This document shows positions 8,511 to 42,318 of a DNA stretch of 64,000 bases, piece after piece; the first letter of the stretch is position 1; each line of letters opens with the position of its first letter. The notes beneath the pieces are model-generated. The model was given only the letters and a program-made list of their open reading frames with translations. It was not told the origin of the DNA and did no database searches. The stretch is taken from positions 2,293 to 66,292 of the forward strand of contig JBGURT010000028.1 of the NCBI GenBank assembly GCA_045132115.1. Reading direction: 5' to 3'. Made by a program: the position numbers and the translations under genes. Source of the stretch: Kiritimatiellia bacterium (GTDB lineage Bacteria; Verrucomicrobiota; Kiritimatiellia; RFP12; UBA1067).

Positions 8511-8618
8511 TTCTGTTCTCCAAAATTTATCTTTGTATTATACCAAAAATCGCTGGAAAAAACAACTATGGATTTCATACGCATGAAAGGATGATTTCAT
8601 ACGCATGAGACGGCGATT

Positions 8619-9575
8619 TCATACTAGCTCGGCGAGGATGGAATCGCAAATCTCGGTTCCGCGAGCGGTAAGGCGGTAAACCAGGCCTTCTTTCGTCAAA
8701 AGCCCTTCCCGGACATAAAAATCGAGCGCCTCGCGCCACTGGGGAAAATCTGCCGTATCCAGTCCGAAACGCGTCCTGAGAGATAGCATTTTTTCGCGAG
8801 GATCGCGATCGAGTCCGCTTTCCGCGCCATCGCCAAGCCCCAGATAATCCTCGCCGCGCCAGACGGCTAGATTGTGGCGGCACTCGAAGCCTTCCTTGGC
8901 GTATGACGAAATTTCGTAGCGCTTTAGTCCCAGCCGATCGAGAGATTCTGCGATTTCCCGTATGCGGTCGAGCGTTTCGTCGTCGCCGGGTATGGCGCGG
9001 CTTTGCCGCCCCAGAATACTTTCAGGCTCGAGGATGAGCGAATAGACGCTAACATGCTTGAAGCCCCAATCCTCCATCTCCCATTTGTCGCCCGGGTAGC
9101 CGACGATGAGATCGATTCCAGCGTTGTCGAAATATTCGAGTATCTGGTCGAACGCACGATGGGCCTGCAAAGCCGTATAACCTCGCCCCATGTCTTTGAG
9201 CGTCTCGTCGTTGAAGGATTGTACGCCCATCGAAATGCGGTTGACGCCGCCTGCCTTCAAGGTTTCAAGAAGTTCGCGCCTTACATCCAAGGGATGGAGC
9301 TCGACCGTCCATTCCGGGGCCTCGAGCCGCTCCAAAAGCGGTCTTAAATCGCACAATGCCGGAGTTCCGCCGCCAAAATAAATCGTCTTGAAGGGCCCCG
9401 GCGGCAATTGACGCACGATGCTGTCTACATACCCCGGAGTTGGACGCATAGCCTTGGAAGGCAATGCGCAATACGTGCATTTGCGGCGGCAAAAAGGAAA
9501 ATGGATGTAGAGGTTTTCGACCACTACATCGCGAAAAGAGCGCGAAGCTTCTTGACCTTGTCGGTCTTTTCCCAC
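8619..9575 (-). CDS. hemW: radical SAM heme chaperone HemW / coproporphyrinogen-III oxidase-like
   Basis: [16 protein letters not shown] radical-SAM CxxxCxxC; first ATG at 9575 would overlap metK by ~52 nt; true start may be GTG at 9524. Confidence 0.75.
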
Positions 9576-10699
9576 GGCAGACCTTTACGGCCGAAATGTC
9601 CGTACGACGCCGTTTGGGCGTAAATCGGACGCAAAAGCCCGAGGTCCTTCTGGATGGCATAGGGCCGGAAGTCGAACACCTTGCCGTCTTTGAGCATCGC
9701 TTCAAGCTTTTCGTTGGTGACGCCCTCGGCGGCAGTGCCGAACGTCTTGACGCAGAAACTCACGGGCCTCGCTACGCCAATCGCATAAGCAACCTGAATC
9801 TGGCACCGCGCGGCGAGTCCGGCAGCCACAATATTCTTGGCCGCATAGCGCGCGTAATACGCCGCGCTGCGGTCTACCTTGCTGGGATCCTTGCCGGAAA
9901 AAGCGCCGCCGCCGTGCGCCGCCATGCCGCCGTAAGTATCGACGATTATCTTCCGGCCGGTTAGACCCGAGTCTCCGCAAGGTCCGCCGACCACGAACTT
10001 GCCCGTGGGATTTATGAAGAACTTAGTCTTCGCCGTCAAAAGTCCGGTAGCCGAAAGGAACTTTTTAGCCTCTGCCTTGATAAGCGCGTAGTGCTTCTTC
10101 GTCGCGCCCTTCTCGGTCGTTTGATGCGAAACGACCACGGTATCTATCGCAACCGGTTTCCCGCCAGCATAAACGACAGAAAGCTGCGCCTTGGCATCCG
10201 GACGCAAAAACTCCCAAGCGCCATCCGACTTCCTCAAGGCGGCAAAATGCTTAAGCAAGGCGTGCGAATAGACGATTGCCGCAGGCATCAGCTCCGGCGT
10301 CTCGTCGGTCGCATAGCCGAACATCATGCCTTGGTCGCCGGCTCCCTGATCCTCCGCCGCCGTGCGGTCTACGCCTTGCGCTATGTCCGGGCTCTGGCCA
10401 TGGAGGAAAGATTCGTATTTGAAAGTATCGAAGCTGAAATGTTCGCCTGGACGATCGTAGCCGATTTCCTTCACTACCTTGCGTGCAATCTTTTCCGTAT
10501 CGACCTTCTCGAATCCCTTGCAGGTAATCTCGCCCATGTTGACGACGATATCCGGTCCGACCATCGTCTCGCAGGCGACTCGCGCATTCTTGTCGAGCTT
10601 CAGGCAAGCGTCGAGAATCGCGTCAGAAATCGCGTCGGCAACCTTGTCGGGATGGCCTTCCGAGACCGATTCCGAACTGAAAACGTGAGAATGGATCAT
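9524..10699 (-). CDS. metK: S-adenosylmethionine synthetase
   Basis: ORF 9524..10990 trimmed to [22 protein letters not shown]... (ATG 10699); GHPDK, GAGDQG, full-length MetK. Confidence 0.92.
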
Positions 10700-11073
10700 A
10701 GAACGGCGATGCACTCGATTTCGACCTTGACGTCCTTGGGCAGACGCGCGACCTCGACGCAACTGCGCGCAGGCTTGGTCTCCCCGAACATCTCGGCATA
10801 AACGCCGTTCAAGGCGGCAAAATCGTTCATATCCTTGATGAAAACCGTAGTCTTGACGACATTCGCGAGCGAGCCGCCGGCAGCGGCAAGGACGGCCGCG
10901 AGATTGGAAATCGACTGGCGCGTCTGGCCTTCGATAGTCGTCGCCTCGATCGCGCCGGTCGCAGGATTGATCGGAATCTGCCCGGAGCAATAGACGGTAT
11001 TGCCTACCTTGATCGCCTGACTGTAAGGACCTAGCGCCTTGGGCGCGTTTTCGCTGTGGATTATTGCCGCCAT
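10696..11073 (-). CDS. ridA: RidA family reactive-intermediate/imine deaminase (YjgF/TdcF)
   Basis: 125 aa; [25 protein letters not shown] ... [16 protein letters not shown]. Confidence 0.88.
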
Positions 11074-11088
11074 CTCTTATTCCTGAAT

Positions 11089-11166
11089 TGGAGCCGGGTA
11101 AGGGACTCGAACCCCTGGTAATTCCTCATTACAAATGAGGCGCAGTCGCCACTGTGCCAACCCGGC
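11089..11166 (-). tRNA. tRNA-Thr (anticodon TGT)
   Basis: Reverse complement folds as cloverleaf GCCGGGT.../...ACCCGGC-T-CCA; anticodon loop TTTGTAA; encoded CCA. Confidence 0.85.
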
Positions 11167-11169: not shown

Positions 11170-11215
11170 TTTAGTGCGCGTATTATATCAAAAATCGCCC
11201 CCAAAAGTCAAGAGC
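11170..11215 (-). promoter_or_regulatory. sigma70-type promoter for tRNA-Thr: -35 TTGACT, 18-nt spacer, extended -10 TGATATAAT, GC-rich discriminator ACGCGC
   Basis: Minus-strand sequence cTTGACTtttgggggcgatttTTGATATAATACGCGCactaaaaacgcc immediately upstream of tRNA 5' end. Confidence 0.6.
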
Positions 11216-11242: not shown

Positions 11243-14200
11243 TTACTTCGTTATTTCGACGCTGTAAAACGCCTCGCTACCGCCAAGTAAGCCACCGGAC
11301 GGATTTGGCGTCCAAGCCTCGCTGTTGCCAATAGTCGTGTCGGCCGGCTCGGAAGCAAGCATCGCCTGCAGCGTCGCGCCTTGACGGAAGTTGTAGGTAA
11401 GACCCGGCTTCGTCTTGGCCGTCGTGATTGTGCTCGCGCTACCGCCAAGGAATACATTCGCGCCCTCGCCGGTAAACACTTCCGCCACGATATCATCCTT
11501 AACCTTCGCCGCAGCCAGATCCACCACGCCTTCGGTATCCGGCGTCAGGCCCTGGAGGAAATCCTTAATATCGTTATCGTTGCCGCCGATAATCTGCACA
11601 TTGGCGCCATTCGCCTTGTAGCTGTTGGCAGTAGACGCAACGCGCACCGTCACCTTGTTCGCCTCCACATTCGCAGGAATCTCCACCACTACATCGGCGG
11701 TACTCGCGCTCGGCGTGACCGTATACCCGTTCTCCGCATCGCCCGTCACCACCGCATCCGGATCGCCGGCGATCGAAGGAGCCGCCTCGACTTTAAGACC
11801 ATCCGTATCCTTGACCAGTTTGAGACCCGATGCCAAATCATCGGTGGTAAAGCTACCCGCCGGCGCCGAACCCCAACTAATCAGCGTAACCGGAGCGGTT
11901 ATATTGAGCGCCGTAAGATCGACATCAACCGTGGTATTTGCCGCAACCGCAAGCTTGTTGCCATATCCAGACGCAAGTCCGGTGCTCGTGAATGCCAATA
12001 TAGCCCCATCCACAAGTTTTATGCTCGGAGTGGGCGCTACCGCCAACGGCAAAGTGAGCGTACCGGTAACCGTCAAGTCTCTATTTGATCCCCACCCGGT
12101 AATCTTTCCGTTGCCAGACAAATTACGGACAGTCGCCTGTACATTGTTGGCCGAAAGGAAGAATTCGCTAGACGAATTATTAAGCACGACATTGCAATAA
12201 AGATTTACGCCAGTGTAGGTATTGTCCACCCGATATATTCCCAAGTGACCGCCACTTACGCTTATGGTACCAAGCTCCTCGACCGTCTCCGCCGTCTGGG
12301 TATTGTCCAATGTGAGCGTATTAGTGCCGTTCTTCGTGAGTGTGTGCCCGTTGAGCGTCAACTTGGATTCGGCATGGTCGGTTTCCCGGATGTAGAAATT
12401 GCCGGAGCCGCCAATCGTGGAGTCTGCGGTCAGTTCCAGCCAAGCCACTACCGCCGTATTGGCATTGCCAAACGATATACCATTGTTGACCAACGCGCCA
12501 CCTGCCAAAATCACTTTGGCCCCGGAGGTGATGCCATACCCATTAAGGTCAAGCGCAACATTGGCCGGAATGGTAATGTCAGCCGCTTCCGTACAGGCGC
12601 AGAGCATCTTGACTGTCAGCGGAGCGTCTTGAGTGGCCGTAGTGGTAGCAGCACTCATTGCCGCTGCAAGCGTAGCATAGTAGGATTGAGTGCCGATCTG
12701 GGCAACGGCGGCGGTAGTGGTGTAGTCCTCAGGAGCCGCAATCACCTCTTCATTGGCAGGGGTTACCTGCTTAACTTGGGTGCCACCTGCGATGTATGCG
12801 CCGACGGCGGCATAGTTGATGGTCACTTCGTCGCCGGCATATGCCCAGTATCCGTTTCCGGAAACGAGCGTCGCACCCGCCACCTCAATGGCCGTATGCT
12901 CAGGCACCACGATGGTGAAGTTCACGATTACCGGCTCGGGGAAGGTATAGGCGTTGCGCTCTTCTTCGGTGAGCTTCTTGTCGAACACCGCAATCGCCTC
13001 GATCTTCATACCGGTAGCGTTATCCCAACCCTGACCAGGCCTGGTGCTCATGCGCAGACCGCCAATCGTCGCACCATAAATGCCGCTATTGGCATCGTCC
13101 GAATACCCAATCGAGTTCACGAAGTTGGTGGCATTGATTGCGCCTTCCGACCCACTGCACAACAGCGTCGTACCGTCATACGTAAACGCCATCACTCCGC
13201 TTGAGGCTGGCGGCTCGCCATCACCAGTGCCCACATCTATCGTCGCGGCACCAGTATTGTCGCCCTTGCTGGCCTTGATTTGATTACCTACCGTCAACCG
13301 GAGCGTGGTACGATCATGCGCCTTTTCGCTCTCGGCGCAACTGGTGAAGAACACGCGTCCAACATTCGAATTATAAACAAGATCGCTGTACTTGACGAGC
13401 GCGGTAATGGCACTTACCCCACTTGCCAGATTCACATCCACGCCCTGATACTCGTTGCCATCAACCGTAGCAATCGTTATCATCCTATCGTCGCCAAAGG
13501 TGTTGCCGTGCCAGTCGAGCGAGCAACCATCAACCGTGCGACGGAAGTCCTTGTTCCATGCCGCAATGGGAGTAGGCGCTACTGTCGGCTCCGGTTCCGG
13601 CTCCGCAGATTTCACCACCTCATTGCTGTAGATGTGCTTGGTCTCGCCGTTGGTCCAACGAACATCCACCCGGAAGCGGACATAGTTGGAACCAGGATTG
13701 TCGAACGAGGTATCCACCCATTCTCCGCCCTCGTCCGACGCATTACCCTGGAGCACATACGTAATCGGCATTGTGGCATCCGCCACCAGCGTCTCATTGG
13801 TGGGCGAATACGTAATCACTGGCGTTGAACCGTTCATTGTCAGCGTGGCCGTAAAGGTGCCAGAACCCATTGGATTCAACCCTAGTACATAGCACTCCCA
13901 CCACTTATAGCCGCTTGATGTCTGGCTATTCTTAATGGTATCAATGTAGCTCGCCGGGACTCCCATATCCGTAAACCACGAATACGGCACAGGATAGTCG
14001 GTGTCAGTGACCTGCTCCGACTTCGGATCACCAACAACAAAGTTAAGAGTATTGCTGTTCTTGACCTCTACCGAACATTCGCGATCAAGATTCGGCAGAT
14101 AAATGGTAGTTGGCTTAGATAGATATGTCGATGCGTAAATAAGCGGATAGGTGCCTTTTGGCATATCTGTGGGCGCGTCAATCCTCAGCTTCCAGTCGGT

Positions 14201-16903
14201 GATCGAAGCCATACCATTACCAAACTGCACTATCGCTTCGGAAGTTGACTGGTCGGAAGTGAGGTTAAGGTTCAGCAGCACATGCTCGCCAACCGACATG
14301 TCATACACCTTGATAGTCGTGCCTGCCTCCTGCACAAATGTACCTGTGCCTGCCAGCGTCAGCGTCTCCTCGTTGGCACTTTCAATGTTGAGCGAGTTGG
14401 TGAGGCTCTTGCTGTTTTCAAAAGTAATAGTCGCATTGGAACCTGCAATACTCAACTTCCCGGTGCCGTTAATGGTCGAGTTCGACACAACCGTGAACGA
14501 CGAGATTCCGTTCTGGTTGATGGCAAATGTATCATTGGCCGCAATTGTTCCACCCGCCATGACCAGCGAGCGGGTAAGTTCATAATCGTCGTTCATCGTC
14601 CACGTTTCCCCTTCACCAACGACAATCTTATCCTCGGTCATGCGCATTACAACATCGCGATGTACGGTAGTTCCGTTTGTGTCAGTCGCGTTGAGCGTAA
14701 GGATCATCCTCTGCCGATCGCGATTGGCCGGAATCACCGGATCGAAGGTAATCTCCCAGTTGCCGGCCGAAGCCTCCGTCACATGCACATTCGCGTCCTT
14801 CACCAGCTCCACATGGCTCGGCGTCGCTGTAAGCGCAGTCACTGTCGTTGGCGTCGTCACATAAAGCGTCGAACTGCCAATCGAACCGTCAGCGAGATAG
14901 CCATCCACCAAATCTGTAGCGGGCTTTCCATCCGCCGCATACTGGATGGAAGTAAACAATGCCGGCATTTCCGACGATGCGCCACTGCTGCAGGTCGTGA
15001 TTTTCGCATCGGAAGGTTCGCCATCCACAAGCGCACCATATACATATGGCGTAACCGAGAAATAATAATCGGAACCATTTGCGAGTCCATTTATGGTTTT
15101 GCTACGGTCAGTTGCTAAAGCCACTTCAAAAACATTCTCACCAGTAAGCGGGATCACATCCGTCACCTTAAAGTCACCAATTACCACATGTCCGTTATAA
15201 GTGGCGTGTCGCTTGTAGATGCGAAGCTGCACCGTCTGCCCCGCATATTCAGCAAGGCTCTTCGTGTTCTCTTTCCAAGTCCCAGGCCAGTACGCCCAGT
15301 TAATTTCTGGGACAAACAATTCGTGCCAATTACCGTCTTCACCGCAGATTTCAATCACTACATTGTCTTTGCATGCGTCGCCGCTCTTATGGGCGCCGCC
15401 GCTGATCTTGAAAGAAAGCTCTGAGTCTGACGTTATCGTTAGCGGCGTTGAGAACTGGTAGAAGCCATAAGTAAGGTCCTCTGCGTCCAAAGAGATTGAT
15501 GCAGCTCCGTAGTTATTTGTTGCATACCAAATATTTGCTGGATAAGCACTACCTGTCGTTGCATCCGAAAAATCAGCAGTCCAATCGATAACCTCGTTTG
15601 AAGTGCGGCGCTTACCTTTGATATAGAACATATAGTTCTTATCCGCATAGCAATCCGGGAAGGACCAAGAGAGCGTAACAGAGTTGCCGACAACTCTCGG
15701 AATCGGATCAAGCTGCGGTTTGGCGCGCGGATAGTGATCAAGCCAAAAATAATGCACAGGACCAGTCTTTACGTTGTAAAACTTGTCGCTCGCGTTACCG
15801 CCGTATCCATATACCAAATGGACATAATCTTCTTCATTCTCAACGCCCCATCCATCTGCGACCACGGCGTGACCACCAATACCAACGAAAACAGGAATGC
15901 CTGCTGACAGCGTTTGAGTCACCTTTTCCACCACATCGCTTTTTACGACACCTTCCGTATTAGTTACATTTCCACTACTATAGCCGATGGTGTACCAATC
16001 GCGCTCTGCGCCATGCGCCGATGTATATTTTGTTGAAGTCGACTCGCCTACATTATAGCTCATTGATGCCGATTGGTTGAGCCACAACACATAGCGTCCG
16101 ATTTCATAACGCTTGTCCTCTTCCGCGCCAGTCTTTCCGCGCATATCGCCGGAATACGAATAAGTGTCGGACATCTTGCTCCAATCGAACGGAACAGAGC
16201 CGTTGAAACGGATGGCGAAGTTTTCGCCACGCAAGTTGTGCGTCACCGTCTCAGTTCTTGCAGGATACTTCGGCCACTGCAGTTCCCTGAATATCGCCGC
16301 ATCAGCAATAGAAACGCAACCTGCACAACTACGACCACGCCAAATATAATCTGAAACCTTACTGGAAACAGGCGTCAAATCGTTCCAAGGCTGGTTTTGG
16401 TTGTACTTGGAATCAACGAACGGCTCGATATTGATATCCGAGCCCGATCCGGAACCCGCAGACAGAAGCTTGCGCACCTTCGTTCCTGCACTCGTTTCGG
16501 GCTCCGCGAGCAGCTTGTCCCAGCGCGCATGGCGCCCTTTCGTTTCGTCGGCTTCGGCTGCCGCCACTGCCGCATCTGCCGCATCGAGCATTGCGCGTTC
16601 GGCCGAATCCTCCTCCCCTTCCGAGAAGTCGTTTTGCGAAAAGCCGATTATTGGCGTCGCGCGGTCGCTGCCGCTCAAGAGGATATGCCCGGAAGGTGCA
16701 AGCCGCACCACCCAAAGGTTGCCGCGCTGCCCAATACTCTCAACGCTACGATCGGGTAGCGTTCTCGCCGCCATCTTGCTTGTCTGCAGGAAGCGCTCGG
16801 CCGCAGTTAGCGCAGTGGCCTCGTCATTCGGCGAAGCCGCGCAATAAATCGCCATACCGATTGCGCTGAATAAGGCGAGCAAAAACCTAGAATACTTTCT
16901 CAT
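11243..16903 (-). CDS. giant secreted protein: C10 (streptopain-like) cysteine peptidase domain + FN3-like + LamG-like + PATR beta-helix repeats, C-terminal FY motif
   Basis: 1886 aa; signal peptide; C10 motifs (NQNQPWNDLTP, Cys in AGCVSIADAAIF, His in GGHAVVADGWG); PATR-like repeats (LTLNGHTLTKNGTNTLTLDNT); ends GGSEAFYSVEITK. Confidence 0.8.
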   Translation of the reverse strand: MRKYSRFLLALFSAIGMAIYCAASPNDEATALTAAERFLQTSKMAARTLPDRSVESIGQRGNLWVVRLAPSGHILLSGSDRATPIIGFSQNDFSEGEEDSAERAMLDAADAAVAAAEADETKGRHARWDKLLAEPETSAGTKVRKLLSAGSGSGSDINIEPFVDSKYNQNQPWNDLTPVSSKVSDYIWRGRSCAGCVSIADAAIFRELQWPKYPARTETVTHNLRGENFAIRFNGSVPFDWSKMSDTYSYSGDMRGKTGAEEDKRYEIGRYVLWLNQSASMSYNVGESTSTKYTSAHGAERDWYTIGYSSGNVTNTEGVVKSDVVEKVTQTLSAGIPVFVGIGGHAVVADGWGVENEEDYVHLVYGYGGNASDKFYNVKTGPVHYFWLDHYPRAKPQLDPIPRVVGNSVTLSWSFPDCYADKNYMFYIKGKRRTSNEVIDWTADFSDATTGSAYPANIWYATNNYGAASISLDAEDLTYGFYQFSTPLTITSDSELSFKISGGAHKSGDACKDNVVIEICGEDGNWHELFVPEINWAYWPGTWKENTKSLAEYAGQTVQLRIYKRHATYNGHVVIGDFKVTDVIPLTGENVFEVALATDRSKTINGLANGSDYYFSVTPYVYGALVDGEPSDAKITTCSSGASSEMPALFTSIQYAADGKPATDLVDGYLADGSIGSSTLYVTTPTTVTALTATPSHVELVKDANVHVTEASAGNWEITFDPVIPANRDRQRMILTLNATDTNGTTVHRDVVMRMTEDKIVVGEGETWTMNDDYELTRSLVMAGGTIAANDTFAINQNGISSFTVVSNSTINGTGKLSIAGSNATITFENSKSLTNSLNIESANEETLTLAGTGTFVQEAGTTIKVYDMSVGEHVLLNLNLTSDQSTSEAIVQFGNGMASITDWKLRIDAPTDMPKGTYPLIYASTYLSKPTTIYLPNLDRECSVEVKNSNTLNFVVGDPKSEQVTDTDYPVPYSWFTDMGVPASYIDTIKNSQTSSGYKWWECYVLGLNPMGSGTFTATLTMNGSTPVITYSPTNETLVADATMPITYVLQGNASDEGGEWVDTSFDNPGSNYVRFRVDVRWTNGETKHIYSNEVVKSAEPEPEPTVAPTPIAAWNKDFRRTVDGCSLDWHGNTFGDDRMITIATVDGNEYQGVDVNLASGVSAITALVKYSDLVYNSNVGRVFFTSCAESEKAHDRTTLRLTVGNQIKASKGDNTGAATIDVGTGDGEPPASSGVMAFTYDGTTLLCSGSEGAINATNFVNSIGYSDDANSGIYGATIGGLRMSTRPGQGWDNATGMKIEAIAVFDKKLTEEERNAYTFPEPVIVNFTIVVPEHTAIEVAGATLVSGNGYWAYAGDEVTINYAAVGAYIAGGTQVKQVTPANEEVIAAPEDYTTTAAVAQIGTQSYYATLAAAMSAATTTATQDAPLTVKMLCACTEAADITIPANVALDLNGYGITSGAKVILAGGALVNNGISFGNANTAVVAWLELTADSTIGGSGNFYIRETDHAESKLTLNGHTLTKNGTNTLTLDNTQTAETVEELGTISVSGGHLGIYRVDNTYTGVNLYCNVVLNNSSSEFFLSANNVQATVRNLSGNGKITGWGSNRDLTVTGTLTLPLAVAPTPSIKLVDGAILAFTSTGLASGYGNKLAVAANTTVDVDLTALNITAPVTLISWGSAPAGSFTTDDLASGLKLVKDTDGLKVEAAPSIAGDPDAVVTGDAENGYTVTPSASTADVVVEIPANVEANKVTVRVASTANSYKANGANVQIIGGNDNDIKDFLQGLTPDTEGVVDLAAAKVKDDIVAEVFTGEGANVFLGGSASTITTAKTKPGLTYNFRQGATLQAMLASEPADTTIGNSEAWTPNPSGGLLGGSEAFYSVEITK

Positions 16904-18081
16904 GATGCTTTCCTCCTGGGTAAAGATTCAATTTCGGCAAGGCATGCGGCTCTTGCATCCTCGTCTATAAATTTTGGTTCGCGCCCTTTGTAGTCAATCT
17001 CTACCGCTCCATCGCGAGCGAGAAGTTGGGCGAGGCGGTTCAGAACACAGGCGTCTTCCCGAGTCATGGGCTTTGCCTGCGTCTGATATGGCCACGCCGC
17101 CGGCGCAAGCATCAAAAGTCTGCCGTCAGCAGTCTTGTCGAACAACTTGCCGCCAGGTTTGTACATTGGCGAAAAGCCCATATTCTTTAGCACCACCACC
17201 TTGGCACCGGAATCAAAGGCAAGACGCGCGATTTCGCGCTCGCCATCGGAAATGCATGGCGACACCAGCACCGCACCGTGCTTGGCGGCGGACAGCAACT
17301 CGGCGCATTTTTCTTCGAACCTGGCGCTAGAGCGCTCCATCATTGGAACACCTACGGCATCGTGGGCTATCTTGCTTCCTCCGCCAGATTTGGGAATACG
17401 CTTATATGCAAAGTCGCTACGAGAGCATTGCACCTGCAAAAGCGATGGCGCCGAAAGCAACGCGATGTTGCCGATTACCGAAAAACGACCGGTAAATTCT
17501 CCAAGCGGCAACACTACATCGTGGAGTACCCGGAAGTATTGCGGGTTATCGCGTTTTGTGGCGAGGCGGCGCGGATTGTCGGCGACATAATCAAGCATCG
17601 CCTTCAGCTGCCCCTCATGGAACAGGATTGTATCTTGGAAGCCTGGAGACCAGGATAGGCCGACACAAGAATTCGCCGGCACGCAACCAGATTCGACGTA
17701 GTTCCGTACCTCGCCACTGTTGGCGAGAGACTTCCAACGCGCCGCGGCACCGGCCTTTAAACCGCGCACCAACTCGCCCATAGGCTTCGGCAGCCGCTCG
17801 CGAACATGTACCACAAAGTGTAGATGGTCAGGCATCAGTTGCCGCACCAATATGCGAACTTGGGGATACAGGCGCGGCATCACATCGAGAGCGTCAAGCA
17901 CCGCCGCACCTTCTGGCGTGGGGACGATGTTCCATTCGCCGCCCTTGCGCACAAGGCGCCCCAATGCATCGTTATGTCTATCCGCAAGAGTAAGCGTAAT
18001 CATATATATGCAGGGGCTGGAGTAATCCCAATCCAGGCAGCGTCTCAACATCGAATGCTTGATCTCTTGGCGGATAGGCAT
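16900..18081 (-). CDS. fusion protein: N-terminal RAYT/IS200-like HUH Y1 domain + C-terminal DprA/Smf-like Rossmann domain
   Basis: 393 aa; HUH motif MPDHLHFVVHV; WSPGFQDTILFHEGQLKAMLDYVADNP resembles RAYT helix with catalytic Tyr; C-terminal region aligns by eye with DprA core; ATGA overlap with downstream giant gene, 3-nt gap to upstream one. Confidence 0.55.
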   Translation of the reverse strand: MPIRQEIKHSMLRRCLDWDYSSPCIYMITLTLADRHNDALGRLVRKGGEWNIVPTPEGAAVLDALDVMPRLYPQVRILVRQLMPDHLHFVVHVRERLPKPMGELVRGLKAGAAARWKSLANSGEVRNYVESGCVPANSCVGLSWSPGFQDTILFHEGQLKAMLDYVADNPRRLATKRDNPQYFRVLHDVVLPLGEFTGRFSVIGNIALLSAPSLLQVQCSRSDFAYKRIPKSGGGSKIAHDAVGVPMMERSSARFEEKCAELLSAAKHGAVLVSPCISDGEREIARLAFDSGAKVVVLKNMGFSPMYKPGGKLFDKTADGRLLMLAPAAWPYQTQAKPMTREDACVLNRLAQLLARDGAVEIDYKGREPKFIDEDARAACLAEIESLPRRKAS

Positions 18082-18084
18082 GAC

Positions 18085-34438: not shown

Positions 34439-34515
34439 TGGTGGGCTATAGTGGATTCGAACCACTGACCTCTTCCATGTCAAGGAAGCGCTCTAACCAA
34501 CTGAGCTAATAGCCC
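34439..34515 (-). tRNA. tRNA-Val (anticodon GAC)
   Basis: RC: GGGCTATTAGCTCAGTTGGTTAGAGCGCTTCCTTGACATGGAAGAGGTCAGTGGTTCGAATCCACTATAGCCCACCA; anticodon loop TTGACAT. Confidence 0.88.
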
Positions 34516-34525
34516 TTCATTCCAA

Positions 34526-34611
34526 TGGTGGTGGGGCAAGGATTCGAACCTTGGAAGGCGCAAGCCAGCAGATTTACAGTCTGCCCTCGTTGACCACTTG
34601 AGTATCCCACC
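34526..34611 (-). tRNA. tRNA-Tyr (anticodon GTA), long variable arm
   Basis: RC: GGTGGGATACTCAAGTGGTCAACGAGGGCAGACTGTAAATCTGCTGGCTTGCGCCTTCCAAGGTTCGAATCCTTGCCCCACCACCA; anticodon loop CTGTAAA. Confidence 0.88.
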
Positions 34612-34665: not shown

Positions 34666-34812
34666 ATGCTTTTCCTGGGCTGTGCGGCGGCGATATCCTG
34701 GCTCTGCGCGCCATCTAAACCATTGCGGCAAATTCCTTGATGGCGGCAATAACTTCCTCGACCGGCAGCTCGTATTACAAAAGTTCCACCTCTTCTTTGA
34801 ATGTCATTGCCT

Positions 34813-35688
34813 TCATTCTGCAATCTCCTGACGAACCTTACAGGTAAGTTTCCTGGCGCCTTGATTGTTCAAATGGTCCCAATCGATAAAATCGTCATCC
34901 GTAAAATCAATATCGTAAAAGTGATTTAACAATTTTGCATTGCCATGTTCCCGCGCAACCGCTTCAACGCCGTCGAATATGTTTTTCTCATTCTTCAGCG
35001 CCTCCCGGTAGCCATTGCTGGCTGGCGGAACCACTATCCATACCTTTTGTCCGGCCGCCTCCGCCTCCTCAATCAACTTTACCAGATACACGTTCATTTT
35101 TGAATTTCGCTTGTTGTTTTTAAGGTGCGCAAACGCCCTTTCCACCGCCGTTGCCGTCTTGAATGGCGGATATGTCAACTCATTGCCGAGATCTCCGGGG
35201 ATCGGCTTGTGGCGTTCCAGATATCGCCGGCATTTGCACTTGCATTTCCACACCGCACCCTCCAATTGCGGATACATTCCCGGCCGCTCTTCCGGCCAGC
35301 CTATTCCAGTTGCCGCCCTTATTCCCACTGACATCTTTGAGTATGACGAAAGCAGGTTGTTGCTCCCCGGTGAAAATACCGAGTAAAACACTACCAATTG
35401 TTTGACTGACCGTCCCCATTTTCGGTATATCTCATACGTCGTATACAGATCCTCAAACGCCATGCCGATATTGAATTCTTTACCTTCCGCCCACCATCCC
35501 ATCTGCGCATGGGAAGATCCCAACACCAATGTATCGATTTCATCCTTAATTGCTTCAATCGCCCTAACCTTGCGCACCCATCCTGAATATCCGAATTCCA
35601 AATTCGACACCTTCTTTATATGCAATAAATATGCCAGTTGCCAACCCAGACATTTCAATCTATCTACAAGTCGCATCCCTTTCTTCAT
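34813..35688 (-). CDS. SGNH/GDSL-like hydrolase-fold protein (putative polysaccharide O-acyl esterase/transferase)
   Basis: 291 aa; GSSH near N-terminus (LVLGSSHA) and DWDHLNNQG near C-terminus resemble SGNH blocks I and V; assignment tentative. Confidence 0.4.
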   Translation of the reverse strand: MKKGMRLVDRLKCLGWQLAYLLHIKKVSNLEFGYSGWVRKVRAIEAIKDEIDTLVLGSSHAQMGWWAEGKEFNIGMAFEDLYTTYEIYRKWGRSVKQLVVFYSVFSPGSNNLLSSYSKMSVGIRAATGIGWPEERPGMYPQLEGAVWKCKCKCRRYLERHKPIPGDLGNELTYPPFKTATAVERAFAHLKNNKRNSKMNVYLVKLIEEAEAAGQKVWIVVPPASNGYREALKNEKNIFDGVEAVAREHGNAKLLNHFYDIDFTDDDFIDWDHLNNQGARKLTCKVRQEIAE

Positions 35689-35733
35689 TCCTCTATCTCC
35701 AGCACATTCTGCGCTATCGCCGCCAATGACATA

Positions 35734-36768
35734 TCAGCTCATCGGCTTCTTAATGCCATATTTAGAATAAAATCGCAACAATCCATATAGCCCGAGCTTC
35801 CGCCAAGCCATACTGCGCGCAAGCGCAAAAATTCTCTGCCGGAAATCAAGATCATAGTTGAATTTGCCGTTTTTTCGTGCAAGCACAATGTTTTTCATCA
35901 TCAACTTTATGCCCTTTCTGGCATAAAACCGCGAGATTTTCCGATTGCGACACCAAGCGAACTGAATATGCTGCTCGATAAGCATATTTATATGACGATT
36001 GTCGTCTTCTCCAAACGCACTTATGCCATTGCCTACACGATAAGCACTGACTACATCATTGAGATAGCATATTTTACCCGTCTCAGCCATAAGCAAAAGC
36101 ACAACAATATCATACCAAATTATGATTTCCGGGTGCTTGGCAACGCACTTTCCCCATGCCGAACGGCGCAACAGATAGGTTGTTGTGTGGAAGTAATGTT
36201 TCCCCAACAAATCTTTCAATCCAAGTAAGGTTCTCGTGCCGTTATATTTCTCTACGCTTACGGTCCCATCTTTGTATCGCCATTCAGTATCGGCAACACA
36301 CATGGCCGCATTGGTTTTGCGGATAAGATCGACCTGTTTCTGGAGTTTTTGCGGATCGGTCCAATAGTCGTCACCCTCGCAAAACGCAATAAATTCTCCT
36401 CTCCATCTTGCGTGAGCTCTCTTAGCATTGCCACCATATCGGTAAAGATTCTCATGCCACCAAAGGACGCGTATCTTGTCCGGATATTTCTTTTGGTACT
36501 CGAAACATATTTCACGGGTACCATCTGTAGATCCGTCATCGCCGACGATAAGCTCAAAGTCAAAATCAGTCTTCTGCATCATAACGCCTTCTATCGCCTG
36601 ACGGACGTACGGCGCTTGATTGTATGTCATCATGTGCACAGTAACTACAGGATTCTTGCACAGCCGCTCTGAATCTGATGTTTCGACACAAGGAATATCC
36701 ATTGGGTCACCGTCAAACAATTGAATCGGCGAGCCTCGCAATACTTCAAGTTCTTTCATCAGTGTCAT
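35734..36768 (-). CDS. glycosyltransferase family 2
   Basis: 344 aa; VTVHMMTYNQAPYVRQAIEGV, DFELIVGDDGSTDGT, CEGDDYW (DxD). Confidence 0.85.
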   Translation of the reverse strand: MTLMKELEVLRGSPIQLFDGDPMDIPCVETSDSERLCKNPVVTVHMMTYNQAPYVRQAIEGVMMQKTDFDFELIVGDDGSTDGTREICFEYQKKYPDKIRVLWWHENLYRYGGNAKRAHARWRGEFIAFCEGDDYWTDPQKLQKQVDLIRKTNAAMCVADTEWRYKDGTVSVEKYNGTRTLLGLKDLLGKHYFHTTTYLLRRSAWGKCVAKHPEIIIWYDIVVLLLMAETGKICYLNDVVSAYRVGNGISAFGEDDNRHINMLIEQHIQFAWCRNRKISRFYARKGIKLMMKNIVLARKNGKFNYDLDFRQRIFALARSMAWRKLGLYGLLRFYSKYGIKKPMS

Positions 36769-36830
36769 ACAAAACTATCCTTCTATTATAGACGATACGC
36801 GCGGCAAATTAACCATTTCGTAAAAACTCA

Positions 36831-37301
36831 TTAGACTCGTGCCACCATTTCAAACTGACTATCGATTGCACTGGATATAGTATACCCATACTTTTTATAA
36901 GCCGAGATCGCTTGGTCGTTGTCTTTGTTCACCATTAACTTAATTGTCTTGAAACCTTTTGCTTTTGAAATATTTGAAGCATACTGCATCAATTTAGCTC
37001 CGACACCTAATCTTCGCCAAACTTGACGAACATGAAATATTGAAATGAATGCATACCCTTGCTTAGGCATATTGAAATATCCTCCAAGAATGCCCATTAT
37101 TTTGCACTTGCATACTGCTGAGGATTGAACGGCAACCAGCACAGTTCCGCTATTGATGAGTTTAGTTGCATAACTGTCAATGTCAACTATAGTATTTAAC
37201 GGCGGAGTAAAATCATTGTTAACATCATTTAGATACGCTTTTAGTTCGTCGGCATTCGTCGTAATCTCCAAATGCGGATTTAAAAACACCTCTTCTTTCA
37301 T
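36831..37301 (-). CDS. GNAT family N-acetyltransferase
   Basis: 156 aa; GNAT motif A-like QVWRRLGVGAKLMQYA; AT-rich region. Confidence 0.7.
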   Translation of the reverse strand: MKEEVFLNPHLEITTNADELKAYLNDVNNDFTPPLNTIVDIDSYATKLINSGTVLVAVQSSAVCKCKIMGILGGYFNMPKQGYAFISIFHVRQVWRRLGVGAKLMQYASNISKAKGFKTIKLMVNKDNDQAISAYKKYGYTISSAIDSQFEMVARV

Positions 37302-37407
37302 TCTTGTAATGGCCTATAAGTTTCGTTCAATATTCTATTCGCTACATTGGCATGTCGCTCCCACGCTATAATCCATGCTGAAATATTCGCTTATGAAAAT
37401 ATCTGTC

Positions 37408-38589
37408 TCAATCATCTATCACCACTCTACACCATTCACTATATTTAGCAACAGCCTCTTCCGCCTGATTCCGAGAGTCGAACTTCAAAACAAGAGTGCC
37501 TATTGTTTGATTCGCACCAGTAAAGGATGTGACTTTATCACCCGGCTTCACCCAAAGATCATTTTGAACAAAATACTGCTTGGCAAAATCTTCGTCAATC
37601 TCAAGCGACTTGAATGTACCTGACTTGTTGGAATGTACAATAAACTCAGCCCACGAACCATTATAAACTGGGTCGCTCATTGGCATCATCGACAAAGCGA
37701 GCGCTCCACGAACACTGTTTTCAATCAAATCTTGCCCAGTAGCCAGCTCAAGCATCTCTGAAAGCCTATTGCCGCCACCTCGAGGCGATAGTTCCATTAT
37801 ATAAGGTTTGCCATCGGCTGCGACTCTGGTTTCAATATTGTAGATTGATGTACCAAGATTAAGGAGCTTTATGAGACGTTGAATCTCGCTTCGCAATTCA
37901 TTTTGTGCCTCTTTGGGCATCTCACTCGGCCAGGAATATGCTGCTGGCGTGTAGGGGTTTGGCGCAGTAGAGTCAAAATACTGACAATTGAAGGAGCAAA
38001 AAACGAGTTGGCTGCCTATTGAGAATGAGTCCGTATCAGATGATAAATATGCGTTATCCAAGAACTGTTCGATAATTATGCGACCACTGCGAGATTCGGA
38101 ACGGGCATATTCAATCGCTGACGCCAGCTCAGCACTCGAGCTAACACGAGAGCAACCTTTAGAGCCTGCTGAATCAACGGGCTTAACGATTACAGGGTAG
38201 ATAATCTCATCGTTAGGTTGGTACCGCTTTGGACAGTTAAAACCATTTACTTCCAAGAAGTCGCGAAATCGGTCTTTGTTTTGAAGTATCTCCACTGATG
38301 CAAGCGGCGGGAATGGCAGGCCCATTTTCTCGGCGACATAAGCGGCGGTCACAACGCCAGGATCGACGCCAAACGAAAGAATACCGTCAATTTGCTTCTC
38401 CCGTGCTACCTTCAATACTGCATCTCTGTCGATTATGCTGACATTGACATATTCATCGGAAAACTTATGCGCGATGTTGTCGGGCAGATAATCTGCAGTT
38501 ATGACATAGACTCCCAACTTGTGCGCAGCCTCGATGACCGGCAACAAGTAACGAATCCCGCCAAGCAACATCAGTTTCTTTTGCTTCAC
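37408..38589 (-). CDS. ATP-grasp domain ligase
   Basis: 393 aa; pre-ATP-grasp + ATP-grasp (IVKPVDSAGSKGCSRV, IIEQFLD, YIMELSPRGGG). Confidence 0.7.
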   Translation of the reverse strand: MKQKKLMLLGGIRYLLPVIEAAHKLGVYVITADYLPDNIAHKFSDEYVNVSIIDRDAVLKVAREKQIDGILSFGVDPGVVTAAYVAEKMGLPFPPLASVEILQNKDRFRDFLEVNGFNCPKRYQPNDEIIYPVIVKPVDSAGSKGCSRVSSSAELASAIEYARSESRSGRIIIEQFLDNAYLSSDTDSFSIGSQLVFCSFNCQYFDSTAPNPYTPAAYSWPSEMPKEAQNELRSEIQRLIKLLNLGTSIYNIETRVAADGKPYIMELSPRGGGNRLSEMLELATGQDLIENSVRGALALSMMPMSDPVYNGSWAEFIVHSNKSGTFKSLEIDEDFAKQYFVQNDLWVKPGDKVTSFTGANQTIGTLVLKFDSRNQAEEAVAKYSEWCRVVIDD

Positions 38590-39680
38590 TCGGCAATAAT
38601 CTCCTTCACATTCTCCGCAATCGCTTTTACATCTTCAAGCGACAGCCCATAGTAGGTCGGAAGAGTGAGTACGCGCGAGGCAATATCTGCAGCGATGGGG
38701 CAGGCGCCCTTGGCGTAGATATACGGCGCGAAGTCAGTCAGAAGCGGATAGAAGTAGCGGCGCGAGAATATGTTGCACTTCTCTTTCAATTCGGTATACA
38801 CCCGCTCGCGTGTCGCGAAATCATTGAAAAGAATTGGTATGTAGGCTTTGTTTCTTGATGTAGCAACCAACTTTACTGCATCACAGCCGGCGAACACCTC
38901 TTCATACGCCGAGTATATCTTCTGTCGATACTCAAGAAGATCATCGATCTTTTTCAAACACTCGAGCCCCATAAGCGCCTGCATTTCGTTCATTTTGGCA
39001 TTGGAGCCCACATCTACGCACTCGGTTTCACTATGAATGGCAAAGTTGCGCAGTTCATGCAACTTCTCTTGCACCTTAGCATCTTTGAAGACCAAGAGTC
39101 CACCTTCACATGAGTGGAAAAGCTTCGTCGGATGAAAACTGTACATACTCATGTCACCTTCACCAACCAATTCGGGTACACCAAAGGCGTGAGCGGCATC
39201 ATAAATTATTTTTATGCCATATTTGTCGGCCAGCCGCTGGAAGCCGACAACGTCGCAAGCACACCCATAAACATGCACGGGCACGATCGCCTTGGTGCGC
39301 GGAGTAATCAGTTTTTCCGCCGATTCTAGCGAAAGACACATGGTATCGGGGTCGATGTCCGCAAAGACGGGATTCGCGCCAATCCGCTTGAGCGCATGGC
39401 TGGTGGCCACAAAAGTAAATGGCGTCGTGACTACATCGCCGTCTGCAAGCCCCATGGCATAGTAGCCTAACTCCAGCGCCAAGGTTCCATTATTGAAAAG
39501 CGCAAGGTTCGTTTCAGGCACTCCAAGATATGCCGAAAGCTTCTCCTGGAATTTCTGCAGCATCGGGCCGTTATTCGTGAGCCACTGATTGGCCCAAACC
39601 TGCTCAAGCCCACACTTGAAATCCTCAATTGACGGCAGGTACGGCCTTGTTACCAAAATTGGCTTTTCAAATCTATGCAT
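38586..39680 (-). CDS. DegT/DnrJ/EryC1/StrS family sugar aminotransferase (PLP-dependent)
   Basis: 364 aa; VVTTPFTFVATSHAL, FSFHPTKLFHSCEGG (PLP-Lys region), NAKMNEMQALMGL. Confidence 0.85.
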   Translation of the reverse strand: MHRFEKPILVTRPYLPSIEDFKCGLEQVWANQWLTNNGPMLQKFQEKLSAYLGVPETNLALFNNGTLALELGYYAMGLADGDVVTTPFTFVATSHALKRIGANPVFADIDPDTMCLSLESAEKLITPRTKAIVPVHVYGCACDVVGFQRLADKYGIKIIYDAAHAFGVPELVGEGDMSMYSFHPTKLFHSCEGGLLVFKDAKVQEKLHELRNFAIHSETECVDVGSNAKMNEMQALMGLECLKKIDDLLEYRQKIYSAYEEVFAGCDAVKLVATSRNKAYIPILFNDFATRERVYTELKEKCNIFSRRYFYPLLTDFAPYIYAKGACPIAADIASRVLTLPTYYGLSLEDVKAIAENVKEIIAE

Positions 39681-39729
39681 CTCTGCCCTTACTTTGTGAC
39701 ATCAATCTTTATTTTGTACTCCAGCCGCC

Positions 39730-40521
39730 TCAACTGGAGAGCAACATGTACATTCTTTTACTGCCGAGACGTAGCGCCCATATTTTGTGCTCGCCGACGC
39801 GAAGTTCCGGCTCCAATACTTTTTCGCTTCCTTTTCGGCACAATTTGTGCACAAACTTGCAAAGCCGGTATTTGCCAAACCGCAGAATCAGTTTGCGCGA
39901 CCATGCATCCACCCAAGTGCCGGTCAAATGATGAAATGCATATCCTTCGCGGCTGTCGCAAAAATAGTCTGAGGGATAAACCGTCGTCCGCTCTCCCAGC
40001 TTTAGCGGAAAAGCGGCGTCCTCAAAAGAGACATGGCATTTTGCCTCGATAACCGACATCCACTCGAAAGTATTCGGGGCTAAATCCAACTCGCCGCGCC
40101 CATCAATAAAAGACTTGTTCGTGTATGATACGAGCAAATCGCCGATTAAAGGATTTTGGGCTGCACAACCAATAAAAGCCGTATTGAGAATGGTTTTGCC
40201 ATGGCTCTTGTAGTTGCAGCATACAAACTCTTCGCCGAGAAACCTATCCAACGGACGCAATATCTCAAGATCGGTATCGCAATAAAACCCGCCTTCTTCG
40301 TAAAGCGCCTTCAATCTGAGGAAATCCGAAGCAAAAGCGAACTTGCGATTGTCCACCGCATCCAAGGCGTAACGATTGCCTGCCTTGCGGAGTTCTTCAT
40401 CTCCCCATTCCTTGATTTCATAATCTGGGCAAAACTTGCGCCAGCTCTCCAGGCAACGAGGAAAGATTTCCGGCTTTTCGCCGCCTCCAAGCCAAACATA
40501 GTGCAACTTTTTCGGTATCAT
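39730..40521 (-). CDS. glycosyltransferase with DXD motif (GT32-like)
   Basis: 263 aa; KKLHYVWLGGGEKP, FASDFLRLKALYEEGGFYCDTD. Confidence 0.7.
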   Translation of the reverse strand: MIPKKLHYVWLGGGEKPEIFPRCLESWRKFCPDYEIKEWGDEELRKAGNRYALDAVDNRKFAFASDFLRLKALYEEGGFYCDTDLEILRPLDRFLGEEFVCCNYKSHGKTILNTAFIGCAAQNPLIGDLLVSYTNKSFIDGRGELDLAPNTFEWMSVIEAKCHVSFEDAAFPLKLGERTTVYPSDYFCDSREGYAFHHLTGTWVDAWSRKLILRFGKYRLCKFVHKLCRKGSEKVLEPELRVGEHKIWALRLGSKRMYMLLSS

Positions 40522-40532
40522 TGGCCTGTCTT

Positions 40533-41396
40533 TTACGATTGCTTGAATATCTTGTGTACGATCCAGATGCCAAAAAACTTGACCCTTATCCGCCTACGGG
40601 AAAACTCGAAGAAAAATAGTTTGTTCATCGTATAGGGAATGAGGTCATCAACCGTCACCGGCCTGACTACATACGGTTTAATCTTGCCAGACTCCTTGAG
40701 TTCGCGAATTTTGGCGATACACCCCTTGATGTCGCTCCAATCCAGTTCGCCGAATTCCGCGAGATCGTAATCCCACCACTTGAGCTCCATAAGTTCATGA
40801 ATGGTCTCTTCGTCGAACCGGTACCTGATTACCCTGGCGGGAGCGCCCCCCACAATTGCAAACGGCGGCACGTCTTTCGTCACTACGGCATGCGTACCGA
40901 TTACCGCGCCGTCGCCAATTGTTACGCCACCCCTTAAGAATGCGCAACTGCCGATCCACACGTCATTGCCGATTTTTATGGGCATTGCCGCACCAGTGTT
41001 CTTGCGAGTCGCCGCCTTGCAGGCGCTACGACCTTGCCGCCAGAAGGAAAACATTCCGTCCGCGTACACCATGGGATTCGTTGTCAACCATTGCACCGGA
41101 TGTTCATGCGGACTCATCCAAGTTCCTGCGGCAATGCTGCAATATCTCCCAAATGTCACATTGTGCATCAGCCTGCCGATATCTACCGACGGAGAAAGCG
41201 TGCTGAATGCGCCTACTTCGAAAGATGACTGCAAATCGGCTGAAACAGGAATGTCGCACGGCGGATAAAGCTTTAGGTCCCCATAGCCGATTTTGGATTT
41301 TCCCACTTGGAAATCCACCCCGAGCGCATTCTTTATTCGCTTTTTGTTGGCTCTCGTTATGTGAAGGCTCAGACTCTTTTTCTTTTTCATTTCCAC
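40533..41396 (-). CDS. hexapeptide-repeat (left-handed beta-helix) acetyltransferase, xenobiotic/sugar O-acetyltransferase class
   Basis: 287 aa; IGNDVWIGSCAFLRGGVTIGDGAVIGTHAVVTKDVPPFAIVGGAPARVIRYRF. Confidence 0.8.
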   Translation of the reverse strand: MEMKKKKSLSLHITRANKKRIKNALGVDFQVGKSKIGYGDLKLYPPCDIPVSADLQSSFEVGAFSTLSPSVDIGRLMHNVTFGRYCSIAAGTWMSPHEHPVQWLTTNPMVYADGMFSFWRQGRSACKAATRKNTGAAMPIKIGNDVWIGSCAFLRGGVTIGDGAVIGTHAVVTKDVPPFAIVGGAPARVIRYRFDEETIHELMELKWWDYDLAEFGELDWSDIKGCIAKIRELKESGKIKPYVVRPVTVDDLIPYTMNKLFFFEFSRRRIRVKFFGIWIVHKIFKQS

Positions 41397-41427
41397 ACCC
41401 TTATGCCGCTTCGGTCTGTATGTGTTT

Positions 41428-42231: not shown

Positions 42232-42318
42232 TTCACCCTGCCTCCAAACAATTTATCGTTTCCATACCCTTATACGCACACAAGAAATCTTTATGCATTC
42301 GCTCGCTTCCCTTGCCGC

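Follow-up and report, generated by a model that had tools for sequence, protein, structure and literature searches.

The 64,000-nucleotide stretch of DNA analysed here (the window) comes from contig JBGURT010000028.1 of a Kiritimatiellia bacterium. Almost all of its sizeable open reading frames (ORFs) are on the minus strand, and the GC skew is negative over most of its length. Between positions 11243 and 25320 four minus-strand ORFs follow one another closely. In gene order these are a fadD-like gene for an AMP-dependent acyl-CoA ligase (23674..25320, 548 aa), a gene for a very large protein that we call giant-2 (18085..23640, 1851 aa), a middle ORF with HUH/Y1-transposase-like and DprA-like parts (16900..18081, 393 aa), and a second very large gene, giant-1 (11243..16903, 1886 aa). 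The ligase is assigned at family level only (Pfam AMP-binding, 1.1e-78), as it falls below every NCBIfam equivalog cut-off. An earlier note on this DNA had placed the two giants at these same positions on the minus strand, and this is borne out. It was also right about the 3 nt between giant-2 and the middle ORF and about the ATGA overlap between the middle ORF and giant-1; the spacer between the fadD-like gene and giant-2 is 33 nt, not 34.

Both giants are built from many parts. Giant-1 begins with a signal peptide, an I69 propeptide and a C10 peptidase domain, continues with an FN3 region that contains a MAM/CBM-like insert, an Ig-like domain and a beta-rich segment, and ends with an internal domain of a C-terminal kind (type B), a 220-residue module, a beta-rich body and a C-terminal tail. 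Giant-2 runs from its signal peptide into a C10 domain with no propeptide, and then through an FN3/MAM-like region, a beta-rich body, the 220-residue module and more beta-rich body to a C-terminal domain of another type (type A). The two proteins had been described as having the same layout, which does not hold, because the I69 propeptide and the internal domain at residues 964-1083 are found in giant-1 and neither is found in giant-2.

The protease heads are recognized by standard profiles. Both giants score above the Pfam gathering score of 26 for Peptidase_C10 (PF01640), giant-1 with 81.1 bits (E 1.7e-22; residues 167-371, 15791..16405, minus strand) and giant-2 with 76.8 bits (E 3.5e-21; residues 47-237, 22930..23502, minus strand). 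The motifs at the catalytic positions are AGCVSIA and GGHAVVADG in giant-1, and SGCEAIS and HHAVVGLG in giant-2, which also keeps the Gln, Cys and His. When 83 C10 heads, those of both giants among them, are aligned with streptopain (SpeB) by MAFFT, no sequence departs from the oxyanion Gln, the Cys or the His; the aligned reference sites in SpeB are Cys47, His195 and the Gln of YNQ. Furthermore, HMMER aligns residues 43-378 of giant-1 to the streptopain zymogen (PDB 6ukd) from the propeptide through the catalytic domain, setting AGCVSIA over TGCVATA and GGHAVVADG over GGHAFVIDG, in agreement with the MAFFT placement. A C10 domain with Cys and His retained had been proposed for both giants, and the profile alignment puts these residues where they were expected.

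Sec-type signal peptides, also proposed earlier, are read at both N-termini, and neither N-terminus has a lipobox. The two giants are thus predicted to be secreted C10 (streptopain-type, papain-fold) cysteine endopeptidases. They appear to differ in how they are made. Residues 23-111 of giant-1 (16571..16837, minus strand) match Inhibitor_I69, the Spi / SpeB-propeptide-like family (PF13734, 25.6 bits with a cut-off of 25), and align to the propeptide of 6ukd, so giant-1 is predicted to be a zymogen. Giant-2 has no propeptide in Pfam searches, with I69 found in giant-1 only, and its C10 domain begins at residue 47, straight after the signal peptide.

The heads also give the clearest relationship between the two proteins. 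BLASTP aligns residues 155-755 of giant-1 with residues 35-615 of giant-2 at 27% identity (E 1e-48), and beyond this head of about 630 residues the sole other significant match is a short stretch around FPEP, the motif that ends the 220-residue module. Judged by these alignments, the giants are tandem paralogues in the head. Their paralogy had been suggested before at 30-35% identity; the relationship stands, and the identity is 27%, over the roughly 630 N-terminal residues and the FPEP end only. The bodies may either have diverged past pairwise recognition or have separate origins.

Modular bodies of the giants

The whole proteins were searched against Pfam at E <= 0.1, and eight sub-segments of them at E <= 10. 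A trace of fn3 was found as a partial match in giant-2 (17.8 bits with a cut-off of 25, E 0.004). Structure prediction gave more for giant-1, in which a region of FN3/Ig-like and MAM/CBM-like jelly-roll domains lies at residues 395-766 (14606..15721, minus strand); it is this part that giant-2 has in common with giant-1. An AlphaFold2 (AF2) model of residues 385-1340, built from an alignment of 37 sequences, is moderately to highly confident over residues 385-955, where the block-mean predicted local distance difference test (pLDDT) is mostly about 75-90, with dips to about 57-67. Foldseek matches of this model span E 3.6e-6 to 1e-3 and include a MAM-Ig structure (2c9a, E 3.6e-6), FN3 arrays, the MAM-like domain of InhA2, CBM4, and the adhesin binding regions of GspB and SraP; they are matches of the whole multi-domain model and are not mapped domain by domain. 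The FN3-like label given to the giants earlier is reasonable on the fold matches for giant-1, with Pfam support that stays below threshold, and the inserted domain would be a jelly roll of the MAM/CBM type.

The bodies had also been described as beta-helices made of PATR repeats, and this part of the description is not supported. PATR (PF12951) matches neither giant, even at E <= 10 on the eight sub-segments. A third giant of the same window (giant-3, 54979-63975, minus strand, 2998 aa, with a GTG start near the window end) serves as the positive control, with 34.4 bits, above threshold. Giant-3 has no C10 domain; it is 34% identical to residues 1475-1728 of giant-2 over 266 aa and shares weaker similarity with giant-1. 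Simple PATR regular expressions gave zero matches, the PATR-positive giant-3 included, and are hence uninformative, and isolated PATR-like strings in the giants are seen by eye only. Beta-helix folds are absent from the top 50 Foldseek matches of the giant-1 model, which is confident only to about residue 955.

The block ending in FPEP, earlier called LamG-like, is a real module. Iterated hidden Markov models (HMMs) delimit it at residues 1108-1324 of giant-1 (12932..13582, minus strand) and residues 1101-1327 of giant-2 (19660..20340, minus strand), and find 89 copies of it in 87 related giants, with one in each giant here. The LamG part of the label is not supported: none of 20 module copies matched Pfam, Laminin_G_3 included, a profile of the 20 copies found no match among PDB sequences (best E 0.5), and AF2 confidence is low over the module in giant-1 (block-mean pLDDT about 30-74). 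The module is present in only 72 proteins of a library of 1.84 billion representatives, where it usually is the part of other giant proteins that directly follows the signal peptide. Those proteins carry BNR-sialidase, Laminin_G_3 or weak PATR domains elsewhere, not on the module. It is a genuine orphan module of about 220 residues that is restricted to this lineage, with LamG identity unproven.

The C-terminal domains point to a mosaic history. Domains of the type found inside giant-1 at residues 964-1083 (13655..14014, minus strand; WECYVLGLNP...FRVDVRW) are C-terminal in 42 of 56 occurrences in iterated HMM searches. Residues 1-1083 of giant-1 correspond to the extent of complete shorter homologues, two of which (P0009 and P0012) stop at the position aligned to 1083. 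Because residues 964-1083 form the usual C-terminal domain of homologues, giant-1 reads as a shorter C10 protein with some 800 residues added, which suggests that it may have arisen by fusion of a complete C10 protein of about 1080 aa to a tail of about 800 aa. In giant-2 the type-A domain (residues 1755-1848; 18097..18378, minus strand; PGLWY...FYRVRV) stands at the true end, as it does in 24 of the 24 homologues that carry one in the same kind of search. The tail of giant-1 (11246..11521, minus strand) has a PGLTY...FYSVEI motif with weak likeness to the tail of giant-2. A shared C-terminal motif had been claimed, and a loose PGLxY...FYxV similarity does link the true C-termini (pairwise E 4e-4); they are nevertheless separate families, as iterated HMMs started from each domain do not connect them. 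Across the homologues, a common head is joined to shuffled bodies.

Bodies of this kind raise the possibility that adhesion, or the formation of surface-layer fibres, is the main task of the giants, and that the C10 head would work chiefly in cis, to process or release the protein itself. Non-catalytic, beta-rich body makes up more than 80% of each giant, the bodies are highly variable and shuffled among homologues, as in adhesins, and the fold matches include the binding regions of GspB and SraP. We consider this unlikely, since the head (C10, FN3, MAM-like and Ig domains) is the most conserved part in more than 80 homologues, with invariant catalytic residues, and the esterase fusions and glycan-degrading neighbours described below point to degradation of a substrate.

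Conservation, transcription and role of the pair

Homologues of the giants come from rumen, horse gut and human gut metagenomes, and are recorded as "C10 family peptidase [Kiritimatiellae bacterium]" or "hypothetical protein [Kiritimatiellae]". The giants are new in architecture within a well-known protease family, whose name the records of their homologues already carry. Looking up the exact proteins of the window yielded neither an accession nor a genomic context. A literature search for Kiritimatiellae together with C10 found no paper.

A giant-2-like gene is adjoined by a giant-1-like C10 gene in all five of the other loci examined, with differences in the details. In L002, an acyltransferase gene is followed by a giant-2-like gene, a 438-aa homologue of the middle ORF (45% identity) and a giant-1-like gene. 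In L089, the giant-2-like gene (60% identity) is separated by a 61-nt gap from the giant-1-like gene (72% identity), and in L086 a GH20 gene precedes a giant-2-like gene with a GDSL domain and a giant-1-like gene. The pair is in reversed order in L088. Three C10 giants stand in a row in L087, the giant-1-like gene before the giant-2-like gene and the third C10 giant upstream. The middle ORF is missing from L086, L088 and L089 and was not called in L087, so that it is present in one locus of five; a fadD gene is upstream of the pair in none of them. What lies upstream in these relatives is an acyltransferase, GH20, another C10 giant or a two-component system. Further tandem pairs are suggested by contigs of the same length in the homologue lists of giant-1 and giant-2. 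The conserved element of the locus is the tandem C10 pair, and fadD and the middle ORF fall outside any shared function.

The question of how the pair is transcribed is separate from that of its function. On the minus strand, consensus scans from 28.1 kb to 11.2 kb detected neither a strong sigma-70-like site nor a convincing terminator. Going upstream from the giants, the first strong promoter candidate lies ahead of an rmuC-like gene (28115..28143, minus strand) and has the form TTGTGA-17-TATAAT with an extended -10, GATTTTTGATATAAT. This string is found exactly at 28115-28129 (rmuC) and at 11182-11196 (tRNA-Thr), and with one mismatch at 8537-8551 (nifU), in each case on the minus strand; a search of the window found none between rmuC and giant-1. 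The extended -10 form GATTTTTG(A/G)TATAAT, which recurs upstream of rmuC, tRNA-Thr and nifU, is probably the housekeeping promoter form of the lineage. Two genes lie between this candidate and the fadD-like gene: the rmuC-like gene itself (26593..27978, minus strand; Pfam RmuC 3.5e-69) overlaps by 14 nt a gene for a GFO/IDH/MocA-type oxidoreductase (25317..26606, minus strand), which in turn has an ATGA overlap with the fadD-like gene. At the other end, a terminator-like hairpin with a T-run (11197..11215, minus strand) is found 28 nt past the giant-1 stop codon, and the unit is bounded downstream by tRNA-Thr(TGT) (11089..11166, minus strand), which is preceded by a strong promoter-like site of its own (11182-11211).

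In L002 and L089, a gap of 220-230 nt precedes the giant-2-like gene and holds a TGnTATAAT promoter some 35-40 nt before the ATG. The window has, in place of this region, the 33-nt spacer that follows fadD (23641..23673, minus strand), which carries a ribosome-binding site, AGGAAAGGAA. Because the promoter that the pair has in relatives is absent here, read-through is probable, and a transcript of about 17 kb running from about 28.1 kb through rmuC, the oxidoreductase gene, fadD, giant-2, the middle ORF and giant-1 is plausible. Co-transcription from fadD to giant-1 had been proposed from the short gaps, and it remains plausible on the gaps and on the consensus scans, which found no strong promoter or terminator between the genes and only weak consensus matches inside the unit, one of them at the fadD stop codon.

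A functional operon is a different claim. It would hold that fadD, giant-2, the middle ORF and giant-1 act together, with the ligase providing the acyl groups by which the giants are lipidated or anchored, and with the middle ORF serving the same pathway. The 33-nt, 3-nt and ATGA junctions, the lack of a strong promoter or terminator between the genes, and the acyltransferase gene upstream of the pair in L002 would all fit. We give it little credence, since fadD is upstream in none of the five other loci, a dedicated promoter stands directly before the giant-2-like gene in L002 and L089, neither giant has a lipobox, and the family of the middle ORF occurs in unrelated operons. By the same no-gap logic, moreover, the unit would also take in the oxidoreductase and rmuC genes, which are packed equally tightly and are functionally unrelated. 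Because the upstream partners of the pair are functionally unrelated and not conserved, a functional link to fadD is unsupported, and the short distances to fadD, the oxidoreductase and rmuC are a matter of genes packed compactly on one strand. In a genome as compact as this one, short gaps between genes cannot be taken as a sign of shared function.

The one indication of its role, an indirect one, comes from the genes that accompany the pair in relatives. They include GH20, sulfatases, SASA/GDSL esterases and a lactate permease; an SGNH/GDSL esterase domain is fused to many giant-2 orthologues, and a further protein combines the FPEP module with a BNR sialidase domain. Because GH20, sulfatases and SASA/GDSL esterases are found near the pair, and GDSL is fused to giant-2 orthologues, a role in attacking host glycoproteins or mucins is plausible. 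A host- or mucin-interaction role had been put forward earlier, and the neighbours of the pair in relatives make it plausible.

Taken together, we think it likely that the locus encodes two multi-domain C10 endopeptidases of a gut or rumen Kiritimatiellae bacterium, conserved as a tandem pair, secreted and probably displayed on the cell surface, with the middle ORF as a passenger and with expression by read-through transcription. The long body would hold the protease away from the cell and provide binding to substrates or glycans, the substrates may be host or dietary glycoproteins such as mucins, and the two diverged paralogues could have complementary specificities. Alternatively, and more speculatively, the propeptide-less giant-2 might mature the giant-1 zymogen in trans.

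Several observations weigh against this interpretation. Outside the protease head, neither giant has a match in Pfam, NCBIfam or PADLOC, as a whole protein or in the eight sub-segments. A giant-1-like gene is solitary at L001, and the synteny sample is small, its five other loci being biased to long contigs. The neighbours of the giants in the window are housekeeping genes, and giant-2 here has no GDSL domain. A weak promoter-like sequence, TTTACA-17-TAGCAT, overlaps the fadD stop codon at 23699-23671, so that the giants may be transcribed independently from this site.

If the interpretation is right, uncultured gut and rumen Kiritimatiellae carry C10 peptidases as conserved pairs of surface proteins of about 1900 residues, one a zymogen and the other without a propeptide. 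If active, the giants would be candidate means by which a little-studied phylum attacks glycoproteins of the host or the diet. They are also a source of orphan domains for structural work, such as the 220-residue FPEP module.

The middle ORF and other features of the window

The middle ORF was labelled HUH-DprA by the earlier note, and the label is upheld by predicted folds and by invariant HUH and Tyr residues. An AF2 model from 30 homologues (pLDDT 84.8) has an HUH/Y1-transposase-like N-domain at about residues 20-183 and a DprA-like Rossmann C-domain at about residues 186-380. Foldseek matches the N-domain to 2xm3, 4er8 (RAYT), 2f4f and 2vjv (E 7e-5 to 1e-3), and the C-domain to DprA structures 4ljr and 3uqz and to ShosA (8zva) with E 1e-3 to 5e-2 and target TM 0.35-0.47. 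The HUH motif, H86-L-H88, and Y165 in a Y..NP context are invariant in 30 sequences. Sequence profiles gave less: there was no Pfam match at E <= 10, neither Y1_Tnp nor DNA_processg_A, the NCBIfam model REP_Tyr_transpos scored 31.7 bits, below its cut-off of 80, and no match was found in PADLOC, PHROG or a viral fold library. The protein has no signal peptide.

This ORF belongs to a Kiritimatiellae-restricted family of more than 2189 clusters, with proteins of about 400-480 aa and several diverged copies in each metagenome-assembled genome. A literature search found no description of it. In 80 genome loci its members have very different neighbours, often with junctions of -8 to +2 nt. Genes of type I restriction-modification (R-M) systems make up 15 of the 84 tightly coupled neighbouring ORFs (HsdS 7, HsdM 4, HsdR 4), and in L004 a family copy lies between hsdM and hsdS. 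Glycosyltransferases account for another five, and other tight neighbours include MurJ, ABC transporters, Cas1, PEPCK and LpxK. A C10 domain is found in the flanks of one of the 80 loci, and the FPEP module or either C-terminal domain of the giants in none. Because 79 of the 80 loci are without a C10 gene and the neighbours are heterogeneous, the proteases do not have a partner in the middle ORF; its family is multi-copy and promiscuous, and the ORF itself is an unrelated passenger.

A cognate inhibitor or chaperone of the proteases could have been expected in this position, as in btpB-btiB-btpC of Bacteroides thetaiotaomicron, where the gene order and the very short gaps are the same (PMC3462683), and in L002 the same ORF lies between the pair. 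Such a function is scarcely credible for a protein with the predicted fold of an HUH/Y1 nuclease joined to a DprA-like Rossmann domain, with invariant HUH and Tyr residues and no signal peptide, and with a family found away from C10 genes in 79 of 80 loci. The pair is also found without the ORF in L086, L088 and L089. The inhibitor candidate is essentially refuted by fold and genomic context.

Another suggestion is that the HUH-DprA protein acts on the DNA of its own locus, through single-stranded DNA (ssDNA) recombination or cassette exchange among surface-protein genes and type I R-M genes, so that the two giants and the middle ORF form a diversification unit. It draws on the intact HUH and Tyr residues, the DprA-like domain, the mosaic bodies of the giants, and the enrichment of the family beside type I R-M genes, glycosyltransferases and large surface proteins. 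We judge it improbable. Repeats, hairpins or inverted repeats flanking the middle ORF or the giants are absent from the window, and a search around the giants for repeats and inverted repeats (invertible promoters, cassette recombination, repetitive extragenic palindromic (REP) elements) gave only short, chance-level matches. REP-like hairpins and element ends around the middle ORF are likewise absent from the window, where gaps of 3 nt and -4 nt leave no room for them. Genomes that lack the middle ORF have pairs just as mosaic, many neighbours of the family are housekeeping genes (PEPCK, LpxK, MurJ), and PADLOC and PHROG give no match.

For the family as a whole, we raise tentatively, and with considerable doubt, that it is an undescribed fusion of an HUH/Y1 ssDNA nuclease with a DprA-like domain and could serve, in domesticated or selfish form, as a new kind of ssDNA-recombination module by which the loci around it are remodelled or protected, with the giant mosaics possibly its product. 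The preferred reading of the middle ORF here is still that of a passenger. The family, with its copies placed inside R-M and surface-protein operons, is an independent element that deserves its own study.

Two observations on its relatives can be added. Many of the homologues P0043-P0161 contain variable low-complexity inserts, located C-terminally as well as in two or three of the surface loops (for example, NGEARN/NGEAQN, VPGHSC/VPAHSC and LPRQAQDR repeats), which look like translated short DNA repeats; the middle ORF of the window has no such inserts. Positions 590-710 of L002, upstream of the giant-2-like gene, contain repeated palindromic units, GGCCTCAGACCCCCGGGGTCTGAGGTC and CCTCAGACCCCTAGTGTTTTGG, that resemble REP elements, and units of this type are absent from the window.

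Elsewhere in the window, positions 34800-46200 form a low-GC island (43-50%, compared with about 58% elsewhere) with two tRNAs at one edge (34442-34611). It contains genes for glycosyltransferases (GT2, GT8 and GT4), a DegT aminotransferase, an ATP-grasp protein and a hexapeptide acyltransferase, together with a DXD sugar-binding glycosyltransferase region that has a weak match of the TcdA/TcdB type. The island is probably a horizontally acquired surface-polysaccharide locus. An RND efflux pair, made up of an AcrB-family transporter of 1053 aa and an HlyD-type adaptor, is found at 49808-54159 (minus strand). Downstream of the giants, positions 10696-11166 (minus strand) hold tRNA-Thr(TGT) and then a 125-aa ORF with an N-terminus reading like the RidA/YjgF family, after which comes metK (9524-10990). 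The listed TTG start of metK is probably too far upstream, because its Pfam domains begin only at residue 102.

Comparison with known systems

C10 peptidases are best known as virulence factors, such as SpeB and interpain, and as small proteases of commensal Bacteroides. The giants share with SpeB (MEROPS C10; PDB 6ukd, 2uzj and 4d8b) the papain-fold C10 domain and the same Gln, Cys and His, and giant-1 has a homologous N-terminal propeptide. SpeB differs in size, its propeptide and catalytic domain together being about 400 aa, whereas the giants add about 1500 residues of beta-rich modules, and giant-2 has no propeptide. The position of SpeB Trp212 is occupied by Tyr, Leu, Phe or Met in homologues and by Tyr in both giants, and that of Trp214 by Tyr in giant-1.

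Extension of a C10 head is itself known. Interpain A, PrtT and periodontain of oral Bacteroidota are secreted, degrade host proteins and combine a C10 head with C-terminal extension domains. Their extensions are much shorter than those of the giants and end in a type IX secretion system (T9SS) C-terminal domain. Neither giant has a T9SS or other known sorting domain in Pfam and NCBIfam searches, sub-segments included. The very long beta bodies, rich in Gly, Thr, Asn and Ser, recall the giant PATR (PF12951) surface proteins of the PVC superphylum, from which giant-1 and giant-2 differ in having no PATR match at any threshold tried.

The DprA fold loads RecA on ssDNA. The C-domain of the middle ORF has a Rossmann fold like that of DprA/Smf and of ShosA in the ShosTA defence system (4ljr, 3uqz and 8zva), but the similarity is weak, with no Pfam or PADLOC sequence match, and in the middle ORF the domain is fused to an HUH nuclease. 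The N-domain has the HUH fold, the HxH motif and the Tyr in a Y..NP context of IS200/IS605 TnpA and of RAYTs (4er8, 2xm3 and 2vjv). Unlike these, the middle ORF has no Pfam Y1_Tnp match and no flanking REP or subterminal hairpins in the window; it is translationally coupled in operons and carries a DprA-like C-domain of about 200 residues. A 2018 classification of TnpA-Y1, searched by terms, refers only to unspecified 'additional domains' and does not mention a C-terminal, fused or Rossmann domain (PMC6006769).

The closest parallel in gene arrangement is found in Bacteroides, a gut commensal in which C10 genes form clusters of several paralogues that are partly co-transcribed (Bfp1-4, and BtpA/B/C/Z with Bti inhibitors; PMC3462683, PMC2873492). 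In B. thetaiotaomicron, the gene for a staphostatin-like inhibitor is placed between two C10 genes with gaps of a few bp, in the order btpB-btiB-btpC (PMC3462683). The present locus resembles these clusters in its gut origin, in its clustered C10 paralogues and in the small ORF interposed at gaps of a few bp. It differs in what is encoded: the Bacteroides clusters combine proteases of ordinary size, with propeptides, and an exported inhibitor, whereas here two giants flank a predicted cytoplasmic HUH-DprA protein.

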